A DNA stretch of 53,137 nt from a virus (IMGVR_UViG_2645727867_000003), one strand, 5' to 3'. Shown: positions 7,587-43,329, counted from the stretch's first letter. Notes: generated by a model not told the origin, from the sequence alone. Numbers and translations are program-made.

Positions 7587-7715
7587 TCATGACGGAATAA
7601 AATTTCTGAAATTCTTCACATTTCTGCAAATTGCCTGTAGCCGCAATAATGACGCTGCGTTACTTTTTTGATGCCTGAAAAATAACTCCATAACGTTAAT
7701 CTTCATCGTTTATTT

Positions 7716-7749
7716 CCCGCAGCTCCGCTAACTCTGCGGGATTTTTTTA
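7716..7749 (+). terminator. intrinsic terminator of mini-unit 1
   Basis: CCCGCAG-11 nt-CTGCGGG followed by ATTTTTTTA. Confidence 0.6.
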
Positions 7750-7940
7750 TCCCTTAAACCCGGCCTGATATTTTCTGTCCTCTGCCACCGATATCCCGCA
7801 GCCCCTTCCTGTGAATAAAAATTCTGAATTTATTCACATTTCTGCAAATTACCTGTGGCACTCATAATCACCATACGTTACAATTCGCCCGCTGATTACA
7901 GGCAATAATCAAAACTACTCCTTAAGGTGACTATTCGTTT

Positions 7941-7978
7941 CTCCCGTCAATATCCAGGTGTATTACGGGAGATTTTTT
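7941..7978 (+). terminator. intrinsic terminator of mini-unit 2
   Basis: CTCCCGT-17 nt-ACGGGAG followed by ATTTTTTAA. Confidence 0.5.
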
Positions 7979-8170
7979 AATTCCCCCCTCAGTATCACGG
8001 ACATTACTGACGCCACTCTGTCGCCAGAGACGAATGTACGGGATAAATAAAAACTCTGATTTTCTTCACATTTTCAGTCATTCTCCGTGGCAGAGTGCAT
8101 TCCGGCAGGTTACAGTTTCTTCGGGTCAATAAAAATAAAACGCCAACAGGTTAGTCAACATCGTTCTCTT

Positions 8171-8201
8171 CCCGCAGCACGGAGTACTGCGGGATTTTTT
8201 T
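8171..8201 (+). terminator. intrinsic terminator of mini-unit 3
   Basis: CCCGCAG-9 nt-CTGCGGG followed by ATTTTTTTA. Confidence 0.6.
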
Positions 8202-8389
8202 ATCCCCTTAAACCGGCATGATGCCTTCTGTCCTCTGCCACCGATATCCGGCCCCTCCCTTCCCGTGAATAAAAATTCTGAGTTTATTCACATTTCCGCA
8301 CACTGACTGTAGTGCTCATAATCACGCTGCGTTACAGTTCATCTGCCAGAATAATGAAAAATTCCTTAAAGTTAATCTTCGTATCTCTT

Positions 8390-8422
8390 CCCGCAGGCGC
8401 CGAACACTGCGGGATTTTTTTT
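8390..8422 (+). terminator. intrinsic terminator of mini-unit 4
   Basis: CCCGCAG-10 nt-CTGCGGG followed by ATTTTTTTT, abutting the stop codon of gene I. Confidence 0.6.
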
Positions 8423-29662: not shown

Positions 29663-31627
29663 TCATGCCGCAGTGTCTGTGCTGTTCACTTCCACCGCAA
29701 TGCTGTCAATCAGCAGCGTATACGTCGCCGATTTTGATATATCGGTCAGTTGCAGTTTGTCCGCCACCCCCGATGCCGGTGACTTCACCAGTGTGAACGC
29801 CGCTCCCCGTTTCTCATCCAGTACTGGTGTCACCTGAATGCTGTTGTTTCCGGCAAACTCAAAAGCCAGCGTGTGCCATCCGTTATCAAAGACCCCGAAT
29901 GTATCCAGCTTCGCATTCGGCTTCCTGTGATGCATCGCGTTCAGGTTCGTCGTATCCGTCTGCAGAAAGAAGGACATCAGCATATCGTTACCTTCTCCTG
30001 ACAGCGTCACCCCCTCCGGCAGGGACGACAACTGCCAGTAAATGCCCAGGGCAAACTGATTCGGCACCAGTGAACCCGGCAACTTAAACCGTACGCTCAC
30101 ACGTCCGCCCTTCTTCAGTAACTCCGCCCCCTGTCCGGCTGCATCATGCTCCAGAAACCAGATGTGGTTTTCCGGTTTGTTCAGTTGCAGAGCCTTACCT
30201 CCCGTAGCCCCCGCATCACTGACCACCGCTTCAGCAATGTTTTTGTTAACACTGTCTCCGCCCGCCGGTTTGTGATAATAGCGCCAGCCCTGTGATGCCA
30301 GGTCTTCGCCGGATGCCAGCAGACTCATCAGGGTACGCTTACTGGCCGGGGCTTCCGCCTCTCTCTCCGGACCTTCACCGGAAGGTACGGTGGGCCTCAC
30401 CATATCAGGCTGTTTTCCGGTAATGAATTCAGCGGTTCTCCCGGCGTGCACCAGAATCGCCGTTGCCAGACGGTCGGAAATAATCCCCCGGCGTGCCCAG
30501 GTGCTGAAATGGCTCGCCCTGTCCTGTGACGTCCAGGTGGCTGAGCTGTCACGCCATTTCGAACCGTAATACCCGATACCCGGAATGTCCGGGTCTTCTT
30601 CCGGTTTGTTCGTCGGCACATTCACCCCGTTCTCATCCGTCATGAACGGTACGAAATGGATATTCTTTTCCGTTTTGTTTTTATAGCTGCCGTACACCGT
30701 CTGGTACGTGGATTCGTTCTTCTGCTTCCAGAAATACGTCGTATCTCCACATATCCAGGGAACACCGCCAGCAGAGCCACCAACGCACTGACCTGCCATA
30801 TCCGTCAGGTCTGCACGGAATTTATCAACCAGCGCACCAAACTGTGCTGCGTGATTTACCGGCGTACCGCCAAAATCAAATTCCCCCTGCATCCACACCA
30901 CGGCAAACAGCACATTTTTCGGGTTCTTCTTCAGTGCTGCTTTTGTTCGACCGATAAGGTCCTTGTACAGCGGCTTGTCCACACCCCAGCGGGTTGAATT
31001 CTCCGAGGCACCACTCGCGTCACTGTATGTGCCATCAGCTCCGGTGGTGAACGCTGAACCACCACGACAGCACGGAGCCAGCAGAATGCCCGCATTCGCC
31101 GGTATAAACGGCAGCAATTTTTTGGCAATATGCAGCCCCTGCCCCACGGTTCCGTACTGCCCCTTTGACAGGTCCGCTTTCGGATGGTTAAGGCGGCTCA
31201 TGTCCTGCACATCATGCAGACAATGGTCCGCCGGAATGATGTCGTTATATTTGCATGCTGCACCGCCCGGTGTCACCGTACTGCGGCGCGCCAGCTGCTT
31301 AATGCGCGGCTCCGGACGGTCATATGTCTCCGGCAGCGGAAGACCTTCACCATACGACATGCCATTTGACTGCCCTGCCAGAACCACAACAAAGTAATAC
31401 TCCGGGTCGCTGGTGGCACTGACAGCCACCGCCTTACCCTCATTACCGGTCACCGCCACTGGTGTGGTGACATCACCTTCCGCCGCAATGGCCTGCATCA
31501 GGGTATAAGGCGTGATGGCCACCGGACTGCCAAATGGCTGCCAGCCCTCCTTCAGTTTTTGTGTCAGTCGTTCAGCAAGGTCTGACGGCGATGCCGCCCT
31601 GACCACATCGTAGTGTTTAAATGCCAT
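29663..31627 (-). CDS. nanS: prophage-type sialate O-acetylesterase (NanS-p family, SGNH hydrolase) with C-terminal extension
   Basis: Block YYFVVVLAGQSNGMSYGEGLPLP…RIKQLAR…YGTVGQGLHIAKKLLPFIP…CCRGGSAFT…WMQGEFD matches the E. coli NanS/YjhS family as recalled from memory. Confidence 0.85.
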   Translation of the reverse strand: MAFKHYDVVRAASPSDLAERLTQKLKEGWQPFGSPVAITPYTLMQAIAAEGDVTTPVAVTGNEGKAVAVSATSDPEYYFVVVLAGQSNGMSYGEGLPLPETYDRPEPRIKQLARRSTVTPGGAACKYNDIIPADHCLHDVQDMSRLNHPKADLSKGQYGTVGQGLHIAKKLLPFIPANAGILLAPCCRGGSAFTTGADGTYSDASGASENSTRWGVDKPLYKDLIGRTKAALKKNPKNVLFAVVWMQGEFDFGGTPVNHAAQFGALVDKFRADLTDMAGQCVGGSAGGVPWICGDTTYFWKQKNESTYQTVYGSYKNKTEKNIHFVPFMTDENGVNVPTNKPEEDPDIPGIGYYGSKWRDSSATWTSQDRASHFSTWARRGIISDRLATAILVHAGRTAEFITGKQPDMVRPTVPSGEGPEREAEAPASKRTLMSLLASGEDLASQGWRYYHKPAGGDSVNKNIAEAVVSDAGATGGKALQLNKPENHIWFLEHDAAGQGAELLKKGGRVSVRFKLPGSLVPNQFALGIYWQLSSLPEGVTLSGEGNDMLMSFFLQTDTTNLNAMHHRKPNAKLDTFGVFDNGWHTLAFEFAGNNSIQVTPVLDEKRGAAFTLVKSPASGVADKLQLTDISKSATYTLLIDSIAVEVNSTDTAA

Positions 31628-31739
31628 GAATCCTCCCGGCCGGGATAATGTTCTGAGTCAGAGAAGGCACGGGCTGACCTCCGGAAACACAAAAGTCACA
31701 CAGAAAAACAGCCCGCAAAAAAGAAATACGCCCTTACAG

Positions 31740-31769
31740 TTGCGCAAGGTGATTACTCTAAGGTATTAT
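31740..31769 (+). promoter_or_regulatory. sigma70-like promoter (TTGCGC-18 nt-TATTAT)
   Basis: Both hexamers and the spacing are conserved in the paralogous copy at 34487-34516. Confidence 0.45.
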
Positions 31770-31776
31770 TAGGGTG

Positions 31777-31853
31777 CTGAATAAATTACTTCACGTTTTG
31801 TTATTTATTCCTTGCTTCCTTGCCAACCGCTCTTCCCAGGAGCGGTTTTTTTT
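31777..31853 (+). ncRNA. candidate ~77-nt sRNA (promoter to intrinsic terminator), paralog A
   Basis: No ORF. Conserved core ATTACTTCACGTTTTGTTATTTATTCCTTGC, then hairpin CCGCT-N9-AGCGG and T8. Confidence 0.4.
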
Positions 31854-31859
31854 ACATGT

Positions 31860-31885
31860 AAAAAGGCTCCTGCGATGAGGAGCCT
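31860..31885 (-). terminator. minus-strand intrinsic terminator convergent with the sRNA-A terminator
   Basis: Hairpin GGCTCCT-N6-AGGAGCC followed by T5 on the minus strand. Confidence 0.5.
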
Positions 31886-31899
31886 GGATGTATGCCTAA

Positions 31900-32900
31900 T
31901 CTCTGTATACTGCATGGTGCCGGGTGCCTCCCGGTGAACAAATGTCCGTGATATCAGTCGGCCACACAGGAAATGATACGATATCACCCCTCCGCACAGG
32001 GGGATTCACCATGCCCGTTTTTTTTAACAAACTCCTCATCAATCAGACAATCATCAACCTCATGAATTGTGAGGAATTTAACATTTCACAACACAGCCTT
32101 TTCCCTGCATAAAAAAGCCCCTCCGGAGAGGGGCTTCGCTACGTGTCTGTTAACCATATGCATGATGCCGGGTGCCTCCCGGTGAGTTCAGTATCAGCAC
32201 CTGAACCCGCACAGAAAGGATAGAGTAGAAACACCTGCGCTGATATGCCCCTCCGCTCAGGGGGATTCACCATGCAGAACTTTTTTAACAACTCCCCGTA
32301 AGACAGGCAAGCATCAACCATCTGAACTGTGAGGAATTTAACATTTCACAACACAGCGTTTTTCCTGCATAAAAAAGCCCCTCAGGAGAGGGGCTGACAC
32401 TGCGTATCTGTATCATCATGAACATGGTGCCGGGTGCCTCCCGGTGAGTCCAGTCTGGTGTCCCTGAACCCGCGTTTGCATTGCCTACAACAGAAAAGAT
32501 GCAAATCACACCAGTCGCCCCTCCGCACAGGGGGATTCACCATGCAGAACTTTTTTAACAACTCCCCCTCAGACAGGCAAGCATCAACCACCTGAACTGT
32601 GAGGAATTTAACACTTAACAACACAGCCTTTTCCCGCACAAAAAAAGCCCCTCCGGAGAGGGGCCGATCGCTATGTATACACCATAAGCAGCATAGTGCC
32701 GGGTGCCTCCCGGTAGATTCAGCCTGACTACTGAATCTGCGTATTGTGACCATCGCTATGGAGACCATGTCAGACGCCCCTCCGCACAGGGGGATTCACT
32801 ATGCTGGCTCGTTTTTACAAGACTTCCATCGATCAGACAATAGCCCATCAACCGAATTGTGAGTCATTTAACATTTCCATGAGGTAACTGATATCCAGCT
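31900..32900 (-). repeat. tandem array of four ~260-bp structured repeat units (candidate minus-strand sRNA genes), each with a hypervariable internal hairpin
   Basis: Each unit has conserved blocks GTGCCGGGTGCCTCCCGGTGA, CCCCTCCGCACAGGGGGATTCACCATGC, GAATTGTGAGGAATTTAACATTTCACAACACAG and a minus-strand terminator GCCCCTC-CGGA-GAGGGGC plus T6 (32111-32134, 32371-32394, 32641-32664). A 50-70-nt unit-specific segment lies between the first two blocks. Confidence 0.6.
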
Positions 32901-33122: not shown

Positions 33123-33401
33123 TTATCCACGGGATATAATTTTGATTTCATCAAAACCGTTACTACCTGCAATTCTGTTGTACTCCTGAACAAGACTCAG
33201 TAACTCCGAATTAGCCGCGGTGAACTCCTCACAGACGTTCCGAAGTGCATCTACATCCAGAAGAACCATCTCCTGACCTGAACGTCGATCAGGGGTACAA
33301 AATAAAACTGTCAGACGACTGAAGACCTTTGTTCGTTCCACATTGACGGCTTCAATACGCTGTAACAGTTGGCTACATCTGATTTTCTCATCAATATTCA
33401 C
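33123..33401 (-). CDS. hypothetical protein (92 aa) downstream of the AraC-family regulator
   Basis: GTG-start ORF in an AT-rich segment. Weak SD. Confidence 0.3.
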   Translation of the reverse strand: MNIDEKIRCSQLLQRIEAVNVERTKVFSRLTVLFCTPDRRSGQEMVLLDVDALRNVCEEFTAANSELLSLVQEYNRIAGSNGFDEIKIISRG

Positions 33402-33489
33402 GCAAACACCAAATGATTATAACTTTTTATGCTGAACACATTCAGACTATATCTAATACAGTCAATCAATATATGCCTGATGAAAAACA

Positions 33490-34215
33490 TCAGATAACGT
33501 CTGCTTTCTGCAAATATGCATAGCTCTCAGGTGGTGCACCATAATACTGGTGAAATACAGAAATGAAGTAGGACTTACTTGAGTAACCACATTTTTCCGC
33601 TATCGCTTGTCCACACTCTCGCTGGAAACATACAAGATTAACAGCAACACGCATTCGCTCCTCCAGCAACAACCGACTAAAGCTATAACCTTCATCCTTA
33701 AGTTTTCGCTTCAACAAGCTTTCGCTCATATGCAATTGTAATGCAATCACACCAAGCATCCAGCCTGCCGATATGTCGGTCTGAATTATAGCCCTTACTT
33801 TACAGCTGATATTATTTACAGCACCGGACAAAAATAATGGCAGACGTCTGTCTGTTGCAAATAAGGAGATACATGAAAATGCGGTTATAACAGAGAAATC
33901 CTTCAAAGTATCACTGGATTCACTATGCTGGGTTATTAAAGCCTCCGCCAGTTCCGTATTGTAAATATCAGACATCAAATAAAGAGGAATTTTTGTCGGT
34001 GTATACTCCGTCAGTTCACACTCCCTTTCCAGATACTGATTGACGACGCTGTTACTTATATCTGCCATTTTCACTCTGTCGGCATAAGCACAGAAAAGCC
34101 CTCTTATATTTCTGGCAACAAGCATAACACTTCCGGCATCGAGTGAAACTTTTTCTTTTTCAAGAAAAATATCTATCGGATAGCGAATCAGGACCACAGA
34201 GCAGGCAACATCCAT
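33490..34215 (-). CDS. AraC/XylS-family transcriptional regulator (GadX-like C-terminal HTH)
   Basis: C-terminal …LLKRKLKDEGYSFSRLLLEERMRVAVNL…CGYSSKSYFISVFHQYYGAPP… is an AraC-type double HTH. AT-rich codon usage. Confidence 0.8.
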   Translation of the reverse strand: MDVACSVVLIRYPIDIFLEKEKVSLDAGSVMLVARNIRGLFCAYADRVKMADISNSVVNQYLERECELTEYTPTKIPLYLMSDIYNTELAEALITQHSESSDTLKDFSVITAFSCISLFATDRRLPLFLSGAVNNISCKVRAIIQTDISAGWMLGVIALQLHMSESLLKRKLKDEGYSFSRLLLEERMRVAVNLVCFQRECGQAIAEKCGYSSKSYFISVFHQYYGAPPESYAYLQKADVI

Positions 34216-34282
34216 TTTGAATTAACCTTAGCAAAAAGACTTAATACCAGTATATTCCAAAAATGGCATTTTGGGAGATTAC

Positions 34283-34455
34283 TTCTGCAAACCGCTCCCG
34301 CTAAATACATCCCTGATTTCCTGCGCAGTCTGTTCAAAACGCCCGGTATCCAGCTCAACGCCAGTTGCACGACGCCCCAGCGCCATCGCTGCTTTAACTG
34401 CCGAACCCTACCCCATGAAGAAATCTGCAACCAGGACACCCAGCAGAAGGGAGAC
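34283..34455 (-). pseudogene. remnant 3' fragment of a DNA methyltransferase gene (paralogous to 35819-35990)
   Basis: Nucleotide alignment to the 3' end of the intact methylase gene. Translation …ADFFMG*GSAVKAAMALGRRATGVELDTGRFEQ… carries an in-frame TAG. Confidence 0.55.
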
Positions 34456-34486
34456 TACAGCCCGCAATTCGAAAAAGGCCACGCTA

Positions 34487-34516
34487 TTGCGCAGAGTGAT
34501 TACTGTCGGGTATTAT
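34487..34516 (+). promoter_or_regulatory. sigma70-like promoter (TTGCGC-18 nt-TATTAT), paralog of 31740-31769
   Basis: Identical hexamers and spacing. Confidence 0.45.
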
Positions 34517-34523
34517 TCGCCAG

Positions 34524-34591
34524 TTGAAGTATTACTTCACGTTTTATTGTTTATTCCTTGCCGCCCGCGTCTCCCAGCGCGGGCTTTTTTT
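34524..34591 (+). ncRNA. candidate ~70-nt sRNA, paralog B
   Basis: Same conserved core as paralog A. The terminator stem is changed in a compensatory way (GCCCGCG-N8-CGCGGGC plus T7). Confidence 0.4.
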
Positions 34592-34599
34592 GTCCATAA

Positions 34600-34860
34600 G
34601 AAAGCCCCTCCGGAGAGGGGCTGAAGCCGCATTTCTGTATCACCATGAGCATGGTGCCGGGTGCCTCCCGGTGAGTTCAGCCCGGTGACACCAAACCCGC
34701 GTATTCTCGCTTACGATCATCAAAGAGATCATACCGTTCACCAGTCGCCCCTCCGCACAGGGGGATTCACCATGCGAAATTTTTTTAACAAATGCTCAGT
34801 CTGACAGGCAACTGTCAACTTACTGAATTGTGAGGGATTTAACACTTCACAGCACAATAT
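34600..34860 (-). repeat. solitary fifth copy of the ~260-bp structured repeat unit
   Basis: Contains all four conserved blocks plus its own variable segment. Minus-strand terminator at 34605-34628. Confidence 0.55.
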
Positions 34861-34910: not shown

Positions 34911-35339
34911 TCAGAGTTTAAAATCCAGCACGCCATTTCTAAATGCTTTATATACTCCTGAAGACGGTGGTGATGGTATATCAGCATTCTTTACTGCATT
35001 CATCGCTTCACGACATAAATCGGGATCACCGCTTTCTCTTTTAACCTGTAGCAGAAGACCATTCGGGGCCATATACATTCTCAGTGAACACTCTTTTCCT
35101 GAATACTTACTCGCATCCTTTAACTGTTCTTCTATGGCTTTCCTGACCTGAATGGCATACTGCCGGATTTCTTCACTGGCATCAGGGGTACGTTCCGATG
35201 AGCTCAAATTTTGTGACTTTATTAATTTATCTGAGTGATACAGAGAAGCATCATAATTATTTGTCGATACATCTTTTGTGCAGCCAGTTGTCAGACTGGC
35301 TAATATCAAAACAAGAACCGGTACAGCACGGCAATACAT
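34911..35339 (-). CDS. lipoprotein with TolA C-terminal (domain III)-like region
   Basis: Signal peptide/lipobox-like LTTGC. C-terminal …YSGKECSLRMYMAPNGLLLQVKRESGDPDLCREAMNAVKNADIPSPPSSGVYKAFRNGVLDFKL is collinear with TolA domain III as recalled from memory (…YAGKTCTLRIKLAPDGMLLDIKPEGGDPALCQAAL…FKNAPLDFKP). SD GGAG. Confidence 0.7.
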   Translation of the reverse strand: MYCRAVPVLVLILASLTTGCTKDVSTNNYDASLYHSDKLIKSQNLSSSERTPDASEEIRQYAIQVRKAIEEQLKDASKYSGKECSLRMYMAPNGLLLQVKRESGDPDLCREAMNAVKNADIPSPPSSGVYKAFRNGVLDFKL

Positions 35340-35617: not shown

Positions 35618-35694
35618 TGGACCGCCATCGAGGACTCGAACCCCGCGCAGCCAGCTTCGAAGGCTGGCGCTCTATCCCGATGAGCTAATGGCGG
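35618..35694 (-). tRNA. tRNA-Arg (anticodon UCG)
   Basis: Hand-folded cloverleaf: acceptor CCGCCAT/ATGGCGG, D-stem GCTC/GAGC, anticodon loop CUUCGAA, T-loop TTCGAGT, 3' CCA encoded. Confidence 0.7.
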
Positions 35695-35702
35695 TATGGA
35701 TA

Positions 35703-35778
35703 TGGTGGCCCTTGCTGGATTTGAACCAGCGACCTGGCGATTATGAGTCGCTCGCTCTCACCACTGAGCTAAAGGGCC
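35703..35778 (-). tRNA. tRNA with CAU anticodon, ileX-like (tRNA-Ile2 read via lysidine, or Met)
   Basis: GGCCCTTTAGCTCAGTGGTGAGAGCGAGCGACTCATAATCGCCAGGTCGCTGGTTCAAATCCAGCAAGGGCCACCA closely resembles E. coli ileX as recalled from memory. Confidence 0.8.
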
Positions 35779-35818: not shown

Positions 35819-36880
35819 TCATCCATTCTGACTGACTAAATCCTGTACTTCCCTGACCGTCTGCTCAAAACGTTCAGTCTCCAGCTCAACGCCAGTTGCA
35901 CGACGCCCCAGCGCCATCGCGGCTTTGACTGTCGAACCCGACCCCATGAAGAAATCTGCAACCAGGTCACCCGGACGACTGCTCGCACTGATTATCTGCT
36001 GCAGCATTTCTGCCGGTTTTTCGCACGGATGTTTCCCGGGATAGTACTGCACCGGTTTATGCGTCCACACATCCGTGTACGGCACCTGCGCCGTCACGCC
36101 AAAATACCGCCGCAGATGCTTATATTCACTCTGCAGTTCCGCATACTGCCGGTTCAGTGAAGTATACGTCTCCAGCAGCTGGTGGTGGGGCTTTTCCAGT
36201 TCACCCCGCTGATGCTTCTCTTCTGCCACCCGGGCAAACAGCGCCTGTAATTTCAGATAATCGCTTTCGTTCGGTAGCTGCCACTGACTGGCACTGAACC
36301 AGTGCGACACCATGTTTTTCTTTCCTGTGGCATCCACTATCTGTTTTGCCGTTATCCCCAGGGCAGCACGCGCATCACGAAAGTAAGCAATCAGCGGAGC
36401 CATCACATGCTGTTTCAGTGCCCTGCCCTTCGCCTCATAGCCATCATCTTTCGAGCGATACGGCCCCTGATAGTGTTCCGCGAACAGAATGCGCTCTGTG
36501 GCGGGGAAATACGCCCTCAGGCTTTCCTTGTTGCACCCGTTCCAGCGTCCGGACGGCTTCGCCCAGATAATATGGTTCAGCACACTGAAGCGTTCACGCA
36601 TCATGATTTCAATGTCAGACGCCAGGCGATGGCCACAGAACAGGTAAAGACTTCCGGCAGGTTTCAGCACCCGCCAGAACTGCGCCAGACACTGGTCCAG
36701 CCACTTCAGGTAATCATCGTCGCCCTTCCACTGGTTATCCCAGCCCTCAGGCTTCACTTTAAAGTACGGCGGGTCCGTGACTATCAGGTCAACAGAATTT
36801 TCGGGTAACGACCGGATAAATTCCAGGCAGTCGGCGTTGATTAACTCACAACTGGATATTTTTACAGTATTAAACTTGGA
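35819..36880 (-). CDS. DNA N6-adenine/N4-cytosine methyltransferase; the conserved N-terminus lies upstream of the first canonical start codon
   Basis: In-frame translation upstream of the called GTG start reads …ELINADCLEFIRSLPENSVDLIVTDPPYFKVKPEGW…, including the DPPY motif. No ATG/GTG/TTG between the upstream stop (36881-36883) and 36757. Confidence 0.7.
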   Translation of the reverse strand, partial: SKFNTVKISSCELINADCLEFIRSLPENSVDLIVTDPPYFKVKPEGWDNQWKGDDDYLKWLDQCLAQFWRVLKPAGSLYLFCGHRLASDIEIMMRERFSVLNHIIWAKPSGRWNGCNKESLRAYFPATERILFAEHYQGPYRSKDDGYEAKGRALKQHVMAPLIAYFRDARAALGITAKQIVDATGKKNMVSHWFSASQWQLPNESDYLKLQALFARVAEEKHQRGELEKPHHQLLETYTSLNRQYAELQSEYKHLRRYFGVTAQVPYTDVWTHKPVQYYPGKHPCEKPAEMLQQIISASSRPGDLVADFFMGSGSTVKAAMALGRRATGVELETERFEQTVREVQDLVSQNG

Positions 36881-38366: not shown

Positions 38367-39032
38367 CTATGAAAATGCCGCCTTTTGTTTTGAACGTGTT
38401 CCCTCCACCAACAATAAAGCTTCACTATCCAGCCGATGAAAAATGTGTTTCATTGCAACCCAGTGACCAGTAAATGTCTTGGACCAGTTTTTGGTTGTTA
38501 CTCCCACCAGTAACGCCAGTTCCTGGTATTCGTAACCTTCCCCACCAAAAAACTCAGCTTTTACCGCCTGCGCCGCCAACCAGATCAACGTCTTCAGGCG
38601 CACCAGAGTTTTTCCTGCAATTTTTCTGGTACCGGATTGAGCATTAAATTCAGTCCACGCCCACTGCGTTATCGCGATCTGATGCTCCCAGCAAATGCTA
38701 CCGCTGTAACACCACAGCAGCCAGGCTTTATGATGTTCTTCAAGAGACAGAACGGCGCGTCGCCATGATGATGTCGAAAACTCAACCGGACTGACCAGGG
38801 CAATTGATGAGCCTTTCGCCAGTGATTGTTTGCCCGGGATCGGGGGATTATCCCGCGTGATCATTTTTCCGGTTACCTCATCGCGGTAACGAATTTTTTT
38901 GCGTCTGTAACGCCCTGTATCGAACAGGGCATTTTCCTGCCAGACTTCCAGCTGGCCTTTTGTCGACCCACTAAGATCCGCAGTGGCAATCATGAGTTGC
39001 TCACGAACAAACTGTAAATACTGGTTATTCAT
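38367..39032 (-). CDS. late-gene antiterminator Q-like protein
   Basis: ~220-aa protein directly upstream of the pR'/tR'-like module and downstream of rusA. Family assignment is from position and size. Confidence 0.55.
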   Translation of the reverse strand: MNNQYLQFVREQLMIATADLSGSTKGQLEVWQENALFDTGRYRRKKIRYRDEVTGKMITRDNPPIPGKQSLAKGSSIALVSPVEFSTSSWRRAVLSLEEHHKAWLLWCYSGSICWEHQIAITQWAWTEFNAQSGTRKIAGKTLVRLKTLIWLAAQAVKAEFFGGEGYEYQELALLVGVTTKNWSKTFTGHWVAMKHIFHRLDSEALLLVEGTRSKQKAAFS

Positions 39033-39387
39033 GCACACCCACCTCTGTAATTCTTATCTCCAGCCGTCCACCAGATACTGGCTTGCCACGTACAATATTG
39101 ATTTCATCAAACTGCTCATCGTCCATTAACAACCCCGCGTGCGTCAGCGCATCCAGCGGTGCTTTCAGAATATTGTCCAGGTCACGGCGGCGCTTATCCG
39201 GTGGCTCTGCAATAATTTTTATTGCCAGCCGTCCGGACAGGCTTAATTTCAGTCGCTGCTGGCGAACAATAAGCGCCACTGCCCGGCGATAACGCTCCCC
39301 GGCTTTTGATACAAAATATGTGCTGCCACGGCGTCGCCAGTAAGTGTTCACCGTCGGCGGGTAAGGTAAAACCAAATCTATGAGCAT
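39025..39387 (-). CDS. rusA: Holliday junction resolvase RusA
   Basis: MLIDLVLPYPPTVNTYWRRRG… with the characteristic RusA N-terminus and acidic catalytic residues. Confidence 0.9.
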   Translation of the reverse strand: MLIDLVLPYPPTVNTYWRRRGSTYFVSKAGERYRRAVALIVRQQRLKLSLSGRLAIKIIAEPPDKRRRDLDNILKAPLDALTHAGLLMDDEQFDEINIVRGKPVSGGRLEIRITEVGVHE

Positions 39388-42009: not shown

Positions 42010-42165
42010 TTACTCCTCAGGTTCGTAAGCTGTGAAGACAGCGACCTCCGTCTGGCCGGTTCGGATTCGTACCTCGCAGAGGTCTTTCCTCGTTACCAGT
42101 GCCGTCATTATGACGGTTAAACAGATGACAATCAGGGCGATTAACATCGCCTTTTGCTGCTTCAT
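42010..42165 (-). CDS. hokD: Hok/Gef-family type I toxin (HokD/RelF-like)
   Basis: MKQQKAMLIALIVICLTVIMTALVTRKDLCEVRIRTGQTEVAVFTAYEPEE. SD AGGAG upstream. Confidence 0.8.
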   Translation of the reverse strand: MKQQKAMLIALIVICLTVIMTALVTRKDLCEVRIRTGQTEVAVFTAYEPEE

Positions 42166-42436
42166 AGCCTGCTTCTCCTTGCCTTTCGGCACGTAAGAGG
42201 CTAACCTACATGTGCAAAGCATGAAATTGGCCTCAGATTAATGTTAAGCGTCCTGCAAGACGCGTAATGTTAACTGGGGCTTTTCTCTGTCTGCCTTACG
42301 GCGGCATGCCCGAGGCAGACAGCCTCAAGCACCCGCAGCAATTCTACTTAACTCTTCTTTCCCCGCAAATCATTTTATCCCCGATGGTAATGTTCTCCCG
42401 ATATGGGAATTCCCATATCAAGGTTAACTCAATCGG

Positions 42437-42988: not shown

Positions 42989-43329
42989 GATAACGCCCTC
43001 TGGTTGATGAATTTAACTATCACCACCTTCAGGTCTCAATCATCAGGTGGCGAGACGTACAGGGTTGAGACTACCGGATCAACCAACCGGCCAGCCTTTC
43101 GGCTGCCCCATACGCCTCACCATAATTCAGATGTGCGTGCGCATACGACAATAAAAAACACGCTCGCGGCGTGTGTCTGTCGCGGTTGAATATCCGGGGT
43201 CTCAATCCCGACGGTCAACTCGACCGTGCGGTGAATATAGCCCCGGATTAGTAATTACGTCAACCCCAGCGGCAAATCGAATAAACCACCAGCGCTACCG
43301 CCATTGCAACTCCTGCCGTTACGAATGCC

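Follow-up and report, generated by a model that had tools for sequence, protein, structure and literature searches.

Tree et al. 2014 (PMC4104026) reported that eight prophages of the EHEC strain Sakai carry 'convergent sRNA pairs', flanked on one side by the moron coding sequences downstream of PR′ and on the other by a conserved phage ORF. EcOnc08, EcOnc21 and EcOnc42 were recovered in that strain by Hfq-CRAC in 5/5 datasets and as a Northern band, the shared probe detecting an RNA of ~271 nt, and the primary 5′ ends of AsxR-type alleles were mapped (PMC4104026). Reviews list EcOnc42/21/08 as confirmed by Northern blotting and CRAC, with EcOnc42 'bookending' stx1AB, and a literature search found no later name for EcOnc42. 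In EPEC, the 'E2348C_1409.E2348C_1408.IGR' sRNA of Pearl Mizrahi et al. 2021 (PMC8550237) is given by its authors as the EcOnc08/21/42 homolog, with a length estimate of 182 nt. In the portion of the EPEC RIL-seq results considered here, this homolog is found on Hfq, always in the sRNA (RNA2) position, and forms chimeras with the 5′UTR of cfa (767), the 5′UTR of dppA (197) and pcm (118), further partners being perA, tir, espC, emrA and a LEE gene (PMC8550237). In seven EPEC targets, a GGCAAGG/GGCAGGG motif is the complement of the sRNA sequence that directly precedes the terminator (PMC8550237). RIL-seq partners of this kind reflect proximity on Hfq, not regulation.

Here, we analysed a viral stretch of 53,137 nt (the window), which contains two related sRNA-like units, A and B. 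Both are probably alleles of this Hfq-binding prophage sRNA (EcOnc08/EcOnc21/EcOnc42 in Sakai, the E2348C_1409-E2348C_1408 IGR in EPEC), brought together by the fusion of two modules and acting in trans through their seed.

Prophage setting

The window is a lambdoid prophage of E. coli that resembles Stx phages and whose late genes lie on the minus strand. Read from right to left, the order is Q, a 237-aa ORF, the methylase, tRNAs, the TolA-C ORF, the region of unit B and the AraC ORF, followed by a 92-aa ORF, a repeat array, a 654-aa esterase ORF, the DUF1378 and DUF826 ORFs and the holin. The main genes are as follows:

38367-39038: antiterminator Q
35819-36757, minus strand: intact, resident N6/N4 DNA methyltransferase of 312 aa, heading the first cargo module (Pfam, RefSeq)
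35618-35778: tRNA-Ile2(CAT) and tRNA-Arg (ARAGORN)
34911-35339, minus strand: ORF of 142 aa with a TolA-C domain, named tolA in RefSeq, between the tRNAs and the dyad of unit B (Pfam, RefSeq)
33490-34215, minus strand: AraC-family regulator of 241 aa, cargo of the second module (Pfam)
33123-33401, minus strand: ORF of 92 aa, cargo of the second module, with no Pfam match
29663-31627, minus strand: esterase-like late gene of 654 aa with DUF1737, SASA and DUF6645 domains (Pfam; 'SASA family carbohydrate esterase' in RefSeq)

The esterase-like ORF lies downstream of the dyad and corresponds to the 'conserved phage ORF' in the published scheme. The succession of Q, methylase, tRNAs, cargo and esterase also agrees with the order published for such prophages. 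The first-pass annotation had implied that this neighbour of unit A was a methylase, which the Pfam domains contradict. Complete STEC genomes, 2014C-4587 among them, have an arrangement identical to that of the window. We also considered a leading region of a conjugative plasmid, with repeats of Frpo/ssi type, and dropped it, since Rfam identified the repeats as STnc100 and the BLAST and Pfam results are those of a lambdoid prophage.

The AraC regulator and the 92-aa ORF (33123-34215) occupy the place where Stx phages carry stx, and remoter relatives of AraC type (69-78% DNA identity) are found near tRNAs in Sakai Sp4 and Sp11. In the early region, Rfam matches to the sok antitoxin RNA (42160-42334), the C4 antisense RNA (43043-43127) and isrK (43153-43227), all on the minus strand, are further known prophage RNAs. 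Among the tail genes, four diverged tandem units are present on the plus strand at 7596-8421 with a spacing of ~220-230 bp. Each has a conserved promoter-like block, a ~90-nt body and a terminator, which ends in CTGCGGGATTTTTTT in 3/4 of the units and has diverged to TACGGGAGATTTTT in the second copy. The first of them matches the PasB Northern probe at 20/23 bases (7721-7743) and resembles the EcOnc22/23/24 probe, so that this stretch looks like an array of PasB-type sRNA genes.

Sequence anatomy of units A and B

The two units and their parts are located on the plus strand:

34487-34591, plus strand: unit B, candidate sRNA of the EcOnc08/21/42 family, from the hexamers to the U-tail
34487-34492 and 34511-34516, plus strand: promoter-like hexamers of unit B, TTGCGC and TATTAT, with an 18-nt spacer
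34517-34591, plus strand: body of unit B (covariance model, Sakai identity, CRAC peak, fold, terminator)
31740-31853, plus strand: unit A, putative divergent allele of the unit B sRNA (repeat search, covariance model, fold, terminator)
31808-31823, plus strand: perfect tandem duplication of 8 nt (TTCCTTGC twice) that doubles the seed block of unit A (TRF)

A direct-repeat search paired the 42-nt hexamer regions of the two units (31740-31781 and 34487-34528) at 76% identity and their 31-nt cores (31785-31815 and 34531-34561) at 94% identity. Pairwise alignment of the two regions agreed with this result, and thus the first-pass claim that the hexamers and the core are common to both copies was confirmed. 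The body of unit B consists of a weak 5′ hairpin, a U-rich single strand, the seed CCUUGCC (34556-34562), a terminator (34563-34584) and a U-tail (34585-34591). Unit A, with hexamers at 31740-31745 and 31764-31769, has two seed blocks, CCUUGC (31810-31815) and CCUUGCC (31818-31824), followed by its terminator (31825-31847) and a U-tail. With a covariance model built from the homologs, unit B reached 102 bits and unit A 68-70 bits; the next match in the window, at 30 bits, is part of another element. The fold z-scores were -4.65 for unit B and -4.31 for unit A, and the predicted folds, in which a weak 5′ hairpin and a long U-rich single strand precede a strong terminator, have a layout typical of Hfq-dependent sRNAs.

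Among complete E. coli genomes (n=5426), A-type units were found in 113 and B-type units in 995. The two are diverged alleles with very unequal population frequencies, unit A being the rarer allele, with a doubled seed block and an altered terminator stem. The TTCCTTGC duplication is missing from the A-type allele of a related locus (L046) in the variant list. When species-representative genomes were scanned, the exact core had 0 matches and a looser pattern gave only chance matches in unrelated phyla; the family seems to be restricted to a subset of E. coli prophages outside the species-representative set. Neither RefSeq nor Rfam annotates the two RNA genes of the window, and a full-text literature search for the core sequence returned nothing relevant. 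In an Rfam search of both units at a permissive threshold, the EcOnc08/21/42-type family was absent, and the weak matches to OmrA-B, RsaOG and GcvB were rejected as driven by the terminator and of no meaningful family.

STnc100 repeats

The structured repeat beside each unit was identified as Rfam STnc100 (RF02076) on the minus strand:

34592-34804, minus strand: STnc100 copy (EcOnc27/sRNA103/PasD type) converging on unit B (Rfam RF02076, 172.4 bits)
31854-32833, minus strand: four tandem STnc100 copies at 31854-32043, 32105-32303, 32365-32574 and 32638-32833 (119-142 bits)

All five matches cover the full model (positions 1-206) and score 119.5-172.4 bits, above the RF02076 gathering score of 47. 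Each unit is directly abutted by an opposite-strand STnc100, and the first copy of the array, which converges on unit A, matches the EcOnc27 probe at 31/35 bases. The earlier observation that the sRNA-like unit and a structured repeat occur together a second time was thus upheld, each unit converging on a minus-strand STnc100. TRF did not detect the STnc100 and PasB-like arrays in the window because their copies are too diverged. The number of STnc100 copies varies among close relatives of the second module.

Homologs in EHEC Sakai and EPEC

Unit B is 94.7% and 94.0% identical over 150 nt to loci in Sakai Sp4 and Sp15, respectively. The EcOnc08/21/42 Northern probe (PMC4104026) matches the window at 34483-34517 in 34/35 bases. 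At unit A the probe has no match, and the 31-nt core of unit A is 97% identical to Sakai; unit A would thus be a divergent member of the EcOnc08/21/42 family. The Sakai Hfq-CRAC peak EcOnc08 (1179938-1180010, minus strand) coincides with the Sp4 match from the end of the -10 to the U-tail, and the EcOnc05 probe confirms that the Sakai coordinates are in register at this locus. The EPEC E2348/69 locus carries the same sequence as the unit. Both units keep CCUUGCC, which is complementary to GGCAAGG, and CCUUGC is invariant in 24 variants (127 copies); the cfa 5′UTR contains CGGCAAGG.

The two units had been called sRNA-like from their sequence. By analogy, their reading as sRNA genes is supported, because near-identical homologs were detected by Hfq-CRAC and Northern blotting in EHEC Sakai and by RNA-seq and RIL-seq in EPEC. 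The position is likewise that of the published moron slot, antisense to the late operon, tail-to-tail with STnc100 and upstream of the esterase-like ORF; at unit B the first two of these features are present, and the esterase ORF is replaced by a methylase pseudogene. Taken together, these results show that unit B and its STnc100 partner are a further instance of an Hfq-binding prophage sRNA pair that is already in the literature, if functionally unstudied, and that they are largely ordinary.

Terminators and covariation

Hairpin and T-run terminators were detected at 31825-31847 in unit A and at 34563-34584 in unit B, with stems AACCGCTC/GAGCGGTT and GCCCGCG/CGCGGGC, respectively. Both have the GC-rich hairpin and the following U-tract of a Rho-independent terminator, with pairing kept across variants. 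An IMG/VR scan with the core pattern yielded 120 loci, and together with the window and Sakai loci the 127 pattern matches comprise 24 distinct bodies. Three terminator haplotypes are present, GCCCGCG/CGCGGGC (the common one), GCCCGCA/TGCGGGC and the A-type AACCGCTC/GAGCGGTT; all of them fold, and the hairpin is kept in all variants. MAFFT leaves the 3′ arm of the A type one column off register, which the covariance model corrects by a 1-nt insertion in the loop. In an alignment fitted to the structure model (104 copies, 22 distinct rows), 3/8 terminator pairs changed on both sides and one pair on one side, with 97.7% of the terminator cells paired. Over all 14 modelled pairs, 98.7% of the cells were paired, compared to 25-54% when the partners were slid.

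The two terminators are therefore homologous positions, as had been proposed, since they are in register after the 1-nt loop indel and changed on both sides in 3/8 pairs. The further claim of selection on RNA structure held in part: the hairpin is kept and the covariation appears real, but it goes back to about two lineage events in a hairpin of generic terminator type, seen in a structure-fitted alignment, and is thus weak evidence that says little beyond the terminator being kept.

Promoters and transcript 5′ ends

The -35 of unit B (TTGCGC) agrees with the consensus at 3/6 positions and was not flagged by a promoter scan; the AsxR locus of Sakai Sp5 has the same -35 and the same flank upstream of it. 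The target of the Northern probe (34483-34517) lies on the promoter-like hexamers of unit B, and the proximal hexamers predict an RNA of ~70-80 nt, compared to ~271 nt (Northern) and 182 nt (EPEC) for the homologs. Because the probe sits on the hexamers, at least some homolog transcripts start upstream of them. The hexamers named in the first-pass annotation are conserved in both copies, but transcription may also, or even exclusively, begin elsewhere. Between them, GTGATTACT is conserved in nearly all variants, one variant having GTGACTACT, and in Sakai the EcOnc21 CRAC peak lies just upstream of the unit-equivalent stretch. The promoter scan and alignment also revealed an upstream site:

31621-31649, plus strand: distal promoter-like site ATGCCA-17-GATAAT, over the start codon and RBS of the esterase gene

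This site would give an antisense RNA of ~197 nt ending at the terminator of unit A, which is near the 182-nt EPEC estimate, and long and short RNA forms may coexist. The equivalent region is absent upstream of unit B, and without it (lost to the methylase pseudogene) unit B could be poorly expressed. The promoter scan found a further promoter-like site at 34228-34256. In a stacked relative (L065), the -10 is changed to GATTAT.

On the minus strand, a hairpin with a T-rich run is present at 31732-31749 and 34479-34494, overlapping the conserved '-35' TTGCGCA. Its stem sequence differs between the two copies and the hairpin is kept, and the conservation of the TTGCGCA stretch could also serve a late-strand RNA. 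In addition, aligning unit A with Sakai Sp4/Sp15/Sp5 revealed by eye an inverted repeat, CGGGCTG...CAGCCCG (31681-31716, plus strand), in the esterase 5′UTR region. Only its downstream arm is present at unit B, and it has one mismatch in EPEC; it could be a structure of the UTR or of a long antisense RNA.

Methylase fragment and stacking of two modules

Upstream of unit B, two features mark the boundary with the AraC-type module:

34279-34441, minus strand: 3′ pseudogene fragment of an N6/N4 DNA methyltransferase (translation, identity, RefSeq)
34433-34450, no strand: recombination junction between methylase-derived and esterase-5′UTR-derived DNA, with the hybrid patch CCAGGACACCCAGCAGAAG (five-way alignment)

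The fragment has its stop codon TAA at 34279-34281 and an in-frame TAG at 34408-34410. Its minus-strand translation (34279-34441) ends in LVADFFMG, stop, GSAVKAAMALGRRATGVELDTGRFEQTAQEIRDVFSGSGLQK, stop, and the intact methylase (35819-36757) ends in LVADFFMGSGSTVKAAMALGRRATGVELETERFEQTVREVQDLVSQNG and a stop. For the matching stretch of strain 2014C-4587, RefSeq calls a DNA methyltransferase pseudogene with an internal stop and a missing N-terminus. Both the translation and this call bear out the earlier identification of a methylase 3′ fragment with an in-frame TAG beside unit B.

The intact methylase of a related locus (L021) shares 96.5% identity with the pseudogene, versus 84-91% for the resident methylase, with 84% identity to the resident stretch 35832-35972. 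L021 is a single module with an intact methylase, AraC, the 92-aa ORF, one STnc100, unit A and the esterase. Another locus (L084) is a single module of TolA, STnc100, unit B and the esterase. Aligning the junction with the resident methylase, the L021 methylase, Sakai Sp4 and L084 showed imperfect microhomology (CAGG.CA...GCAG). The stacked arrangement was found in several of the complete genomes listed (e.g. 2014C-4587 and 2013C-4282) with identical 171-nt segments at both units and equal spacing.

The proposal that the RNA module was duplicated together with the methylase 3′ flank did not survive this comparison, as the pseudogene is the upstream end of the AraC-type module, joined just upstream of unit B. 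Taken together, the identity of the pseudogene, the single-module forms and the mapped junction show a fusion of two cargo modules from different phages and not a local duplication; the dyad is present twice because a TolA-type module became linked end to end with an AraC-type one, and either occurs by itself elsewhere. Module 1 (methylase, tRNAs, TolA-like ORF, STnc100, unit B) and module 2 (methylase, AraC-like ORF, 92-aa ORF, STnc100(s), unit A, esterase) were joined by microhomology-mediated recombination, in which the second methylase was largely deleted and unit B lost the esterase-proximal region upstream of it. A derivative without the AraC cargo is found in L046.

Proposed function and alternative readings

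The gene fills the cargo ('moron') slot of lambdoid/Stx-type prophages, with the late promoter region on one side and the esterase and lysis genes on the other. The sRNA is antisense to the late operon and meets an STnc100-type sRNA tail-to-tail, as in the 'convergent sRNA dyad' reported by Tree et al. 2014. Its intrinsic terminator with a U-tail is a typical site for the proximal face of Hfq and follows a U-rich single strand. In the proposed mechanism, the seed CCUUGCC, immediately 5′ of the terminator, would pair in trans on Hfq with GGCAAGG-type sites (the cfa and dppA 5′UTRs, pcm and tir). Such pairing would couple carriage of the prophage to host envelope, transport and virulence genes. 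When the unit bodies were compared by RNAduplex with windows of EPEC cfa, dppA and pcm and with shuffled sequences, under settings that allow unrealistically long loops, the real RNAs were not separated from the shuffles and long-loop artefacts appeared; z was near 0 in 8/9 sRNA-target combinations, and one, unit A against pcm, reached z = -2.6.

The 5′UTRs of dppA and cfa, two of the top partners of the EPEC homolog, are hubs of sRNA regulation, as would suit an anti-sRNA (sponge) that, like AgvB/AsxR, titrates or destabilises a core-genome sRNA with no direct regulation of mRNAs. The unit also occupies the exact slot of AsxR, AgvB and EcOnc03, with their -35, both flanks and the same dyad architecture. 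We consider this very improbable, as the conserved 3′ region of ~42 nt that defines AgvB/AsxR/EcOnc03 is absent, their Rfam models are without a match at E<=10, and no sRNA is present among the RIL-seq partners of the EPEC homolog in the one part of the table considered here, nor among the motif-bearing targets. A cis-antisense or transcriptional-interference role, in which plus-strand transcription through the esterase 5′UTR dampens leaky expression of the late operon and the esterase and trans activity is incidental, appears quite improbable. It would account for the full complementarity of the unit to the part of the late transcript that separates STnc100 from the esterase ORF, for a distal promoter-like site for the long form over the esterase RBS and ATG, for homolog RNAs long enough (182 to ~271 nt) to span the esterase UTR, and for the near-invariance of GTGATTACT between the hexamers, which is expected of transcribed sequence. 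However, the body of unit B is intact though no esterase gene adjoins it, other phages swap the body for unrelated AsxR-type sequence with the esterase UTR unchanged, and trans chimeras with an enriched seed-complementary motif are abundant in the portion of the RIL-seq results considered here.

The loss of the region upstream of 34433 to the methylase pseudogene raises a question that concerns unit B alone, namely whether it is a decaying remnant carried along by the fusion, which has lost its true (distal) promoter and gives no useful amounts of RNA, so that only unit A functions. The position of the Northern probe, which points to start sites of the homolog transcripts upstream of the proximal hexamers, and the -10 mutation in the stacked relative L065 fit such decay. 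In contrast, unit B has an intact body, seed and terminator, the identical 171-nt segments with unit B are present in many complete genomes, its proximal -35 is that of AsxR-type alleles with mapped primary 5′ ends, the Sakai CRAC peak begins right after the -10, and another promoter-like site is present at 34228-34256; we regard a remnant as rather improbable. The reading we prefer thus remains that both units are alleles of one trans-acting sRNA. A more far-reaching proposal, which we think unlikely, is that the sRNA dyad serves as a portable, stackable 3′ boundary of moron cassettes and that unit A is a functionally distinct paralog of the same seed family, the two alleles being under different control. 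If so, the doubled CCUUGC of the A allele, its other 5′ segment and its re-paired terminator would confer higher avidity or a shifted target set, and the distal promoter, intact upstream of A and lost upstream of B, would place the two alleles under different control.

Comparison with known systems

This analysis assigns two unannotated RNA genes of the window to a family of Hfq-binding sRNAs of Stx-type prophages that is known yet functionally unstudied, and it is of modest importance. What it adds to this family, a divergent A allele and the junction of the stacked modules, is minor and no new kind of element. The natural variants, with seed duplication, three terminator haplotypes and an upstream region that is present or absent, could be used to dissect the family, and the locus is a clean example of cargo modules bounded by sRNA dyads and stacked by microhomology-mediated recombination.

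The repeat of the window, with five full-length late-strand matches, belongs to STnc100 (also EcOnc27, sRNA103 and EcOnc05, with PasD related). Four tandem copies lie upstream of unit A in the window, compared to one in L021 and two in L046. PasA and PasC of EPEC are likewise prophage-borne, Hfq-dependent sRNAs that adjoin the same esterase gene and are antisense to late genes. Unlike the units, they are located between the esterase and the holin; an identity with PasA/PasC was rejected because the units are on the other side of the esterase gene and the probes are unmatched in the window within 20% mismatches.

AsxR, AgvB and EcOnc03 share with the units the slot, the orientation, the -35 TTGCGCA with its upstream flank and the convergent STnc100 partner, and they too are Hfq-binding RNAs with an intrinsic terminator, Hfq binding of the unit family being known from its homologs. 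Directly after the -35 the resemblance ends, the transcribed sequence being unrelated down to and including the terminator, and the units are at least 70 nt long versus 51-60 nt. In the portion of the interaction data considered here, the captured partners are mRNAs for the unit family versus sRNAs for AsxR/AgvB/EcOnc03. The Rfam models for AgvB (RF02702) and AsxR (RF02703) did not match either unit even at E<=10, and the AsxR model finds the AsxR of Sakai Sp5 at 88 bits, with STnc100 in the same arrangement. Membership in the AgvB/AsxR family was rejected, as their conserved 3′ ~42 nt (AGUAUCUCAUGC..UUGCCCGAACCCAYUCGGGC) is absent and the bodies are unrelated.

The closest described RNAs are EcOnc08/21/42. 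Unit B is near-identical to them, with an identical seed and terminator stem, and it lies on the same strand and at the same place with respect to STnc100 and the esterase. Unit A has in common with them the 31-nt core, the seed and the overall fold, and it differs in its other 5′ segment, the doubled TTCCTTGC block and three compensated terminator pairs. The Sakai and EPEC loci keep the esterase-proximal upstream region, whereas unit B of the window is cut off from it.
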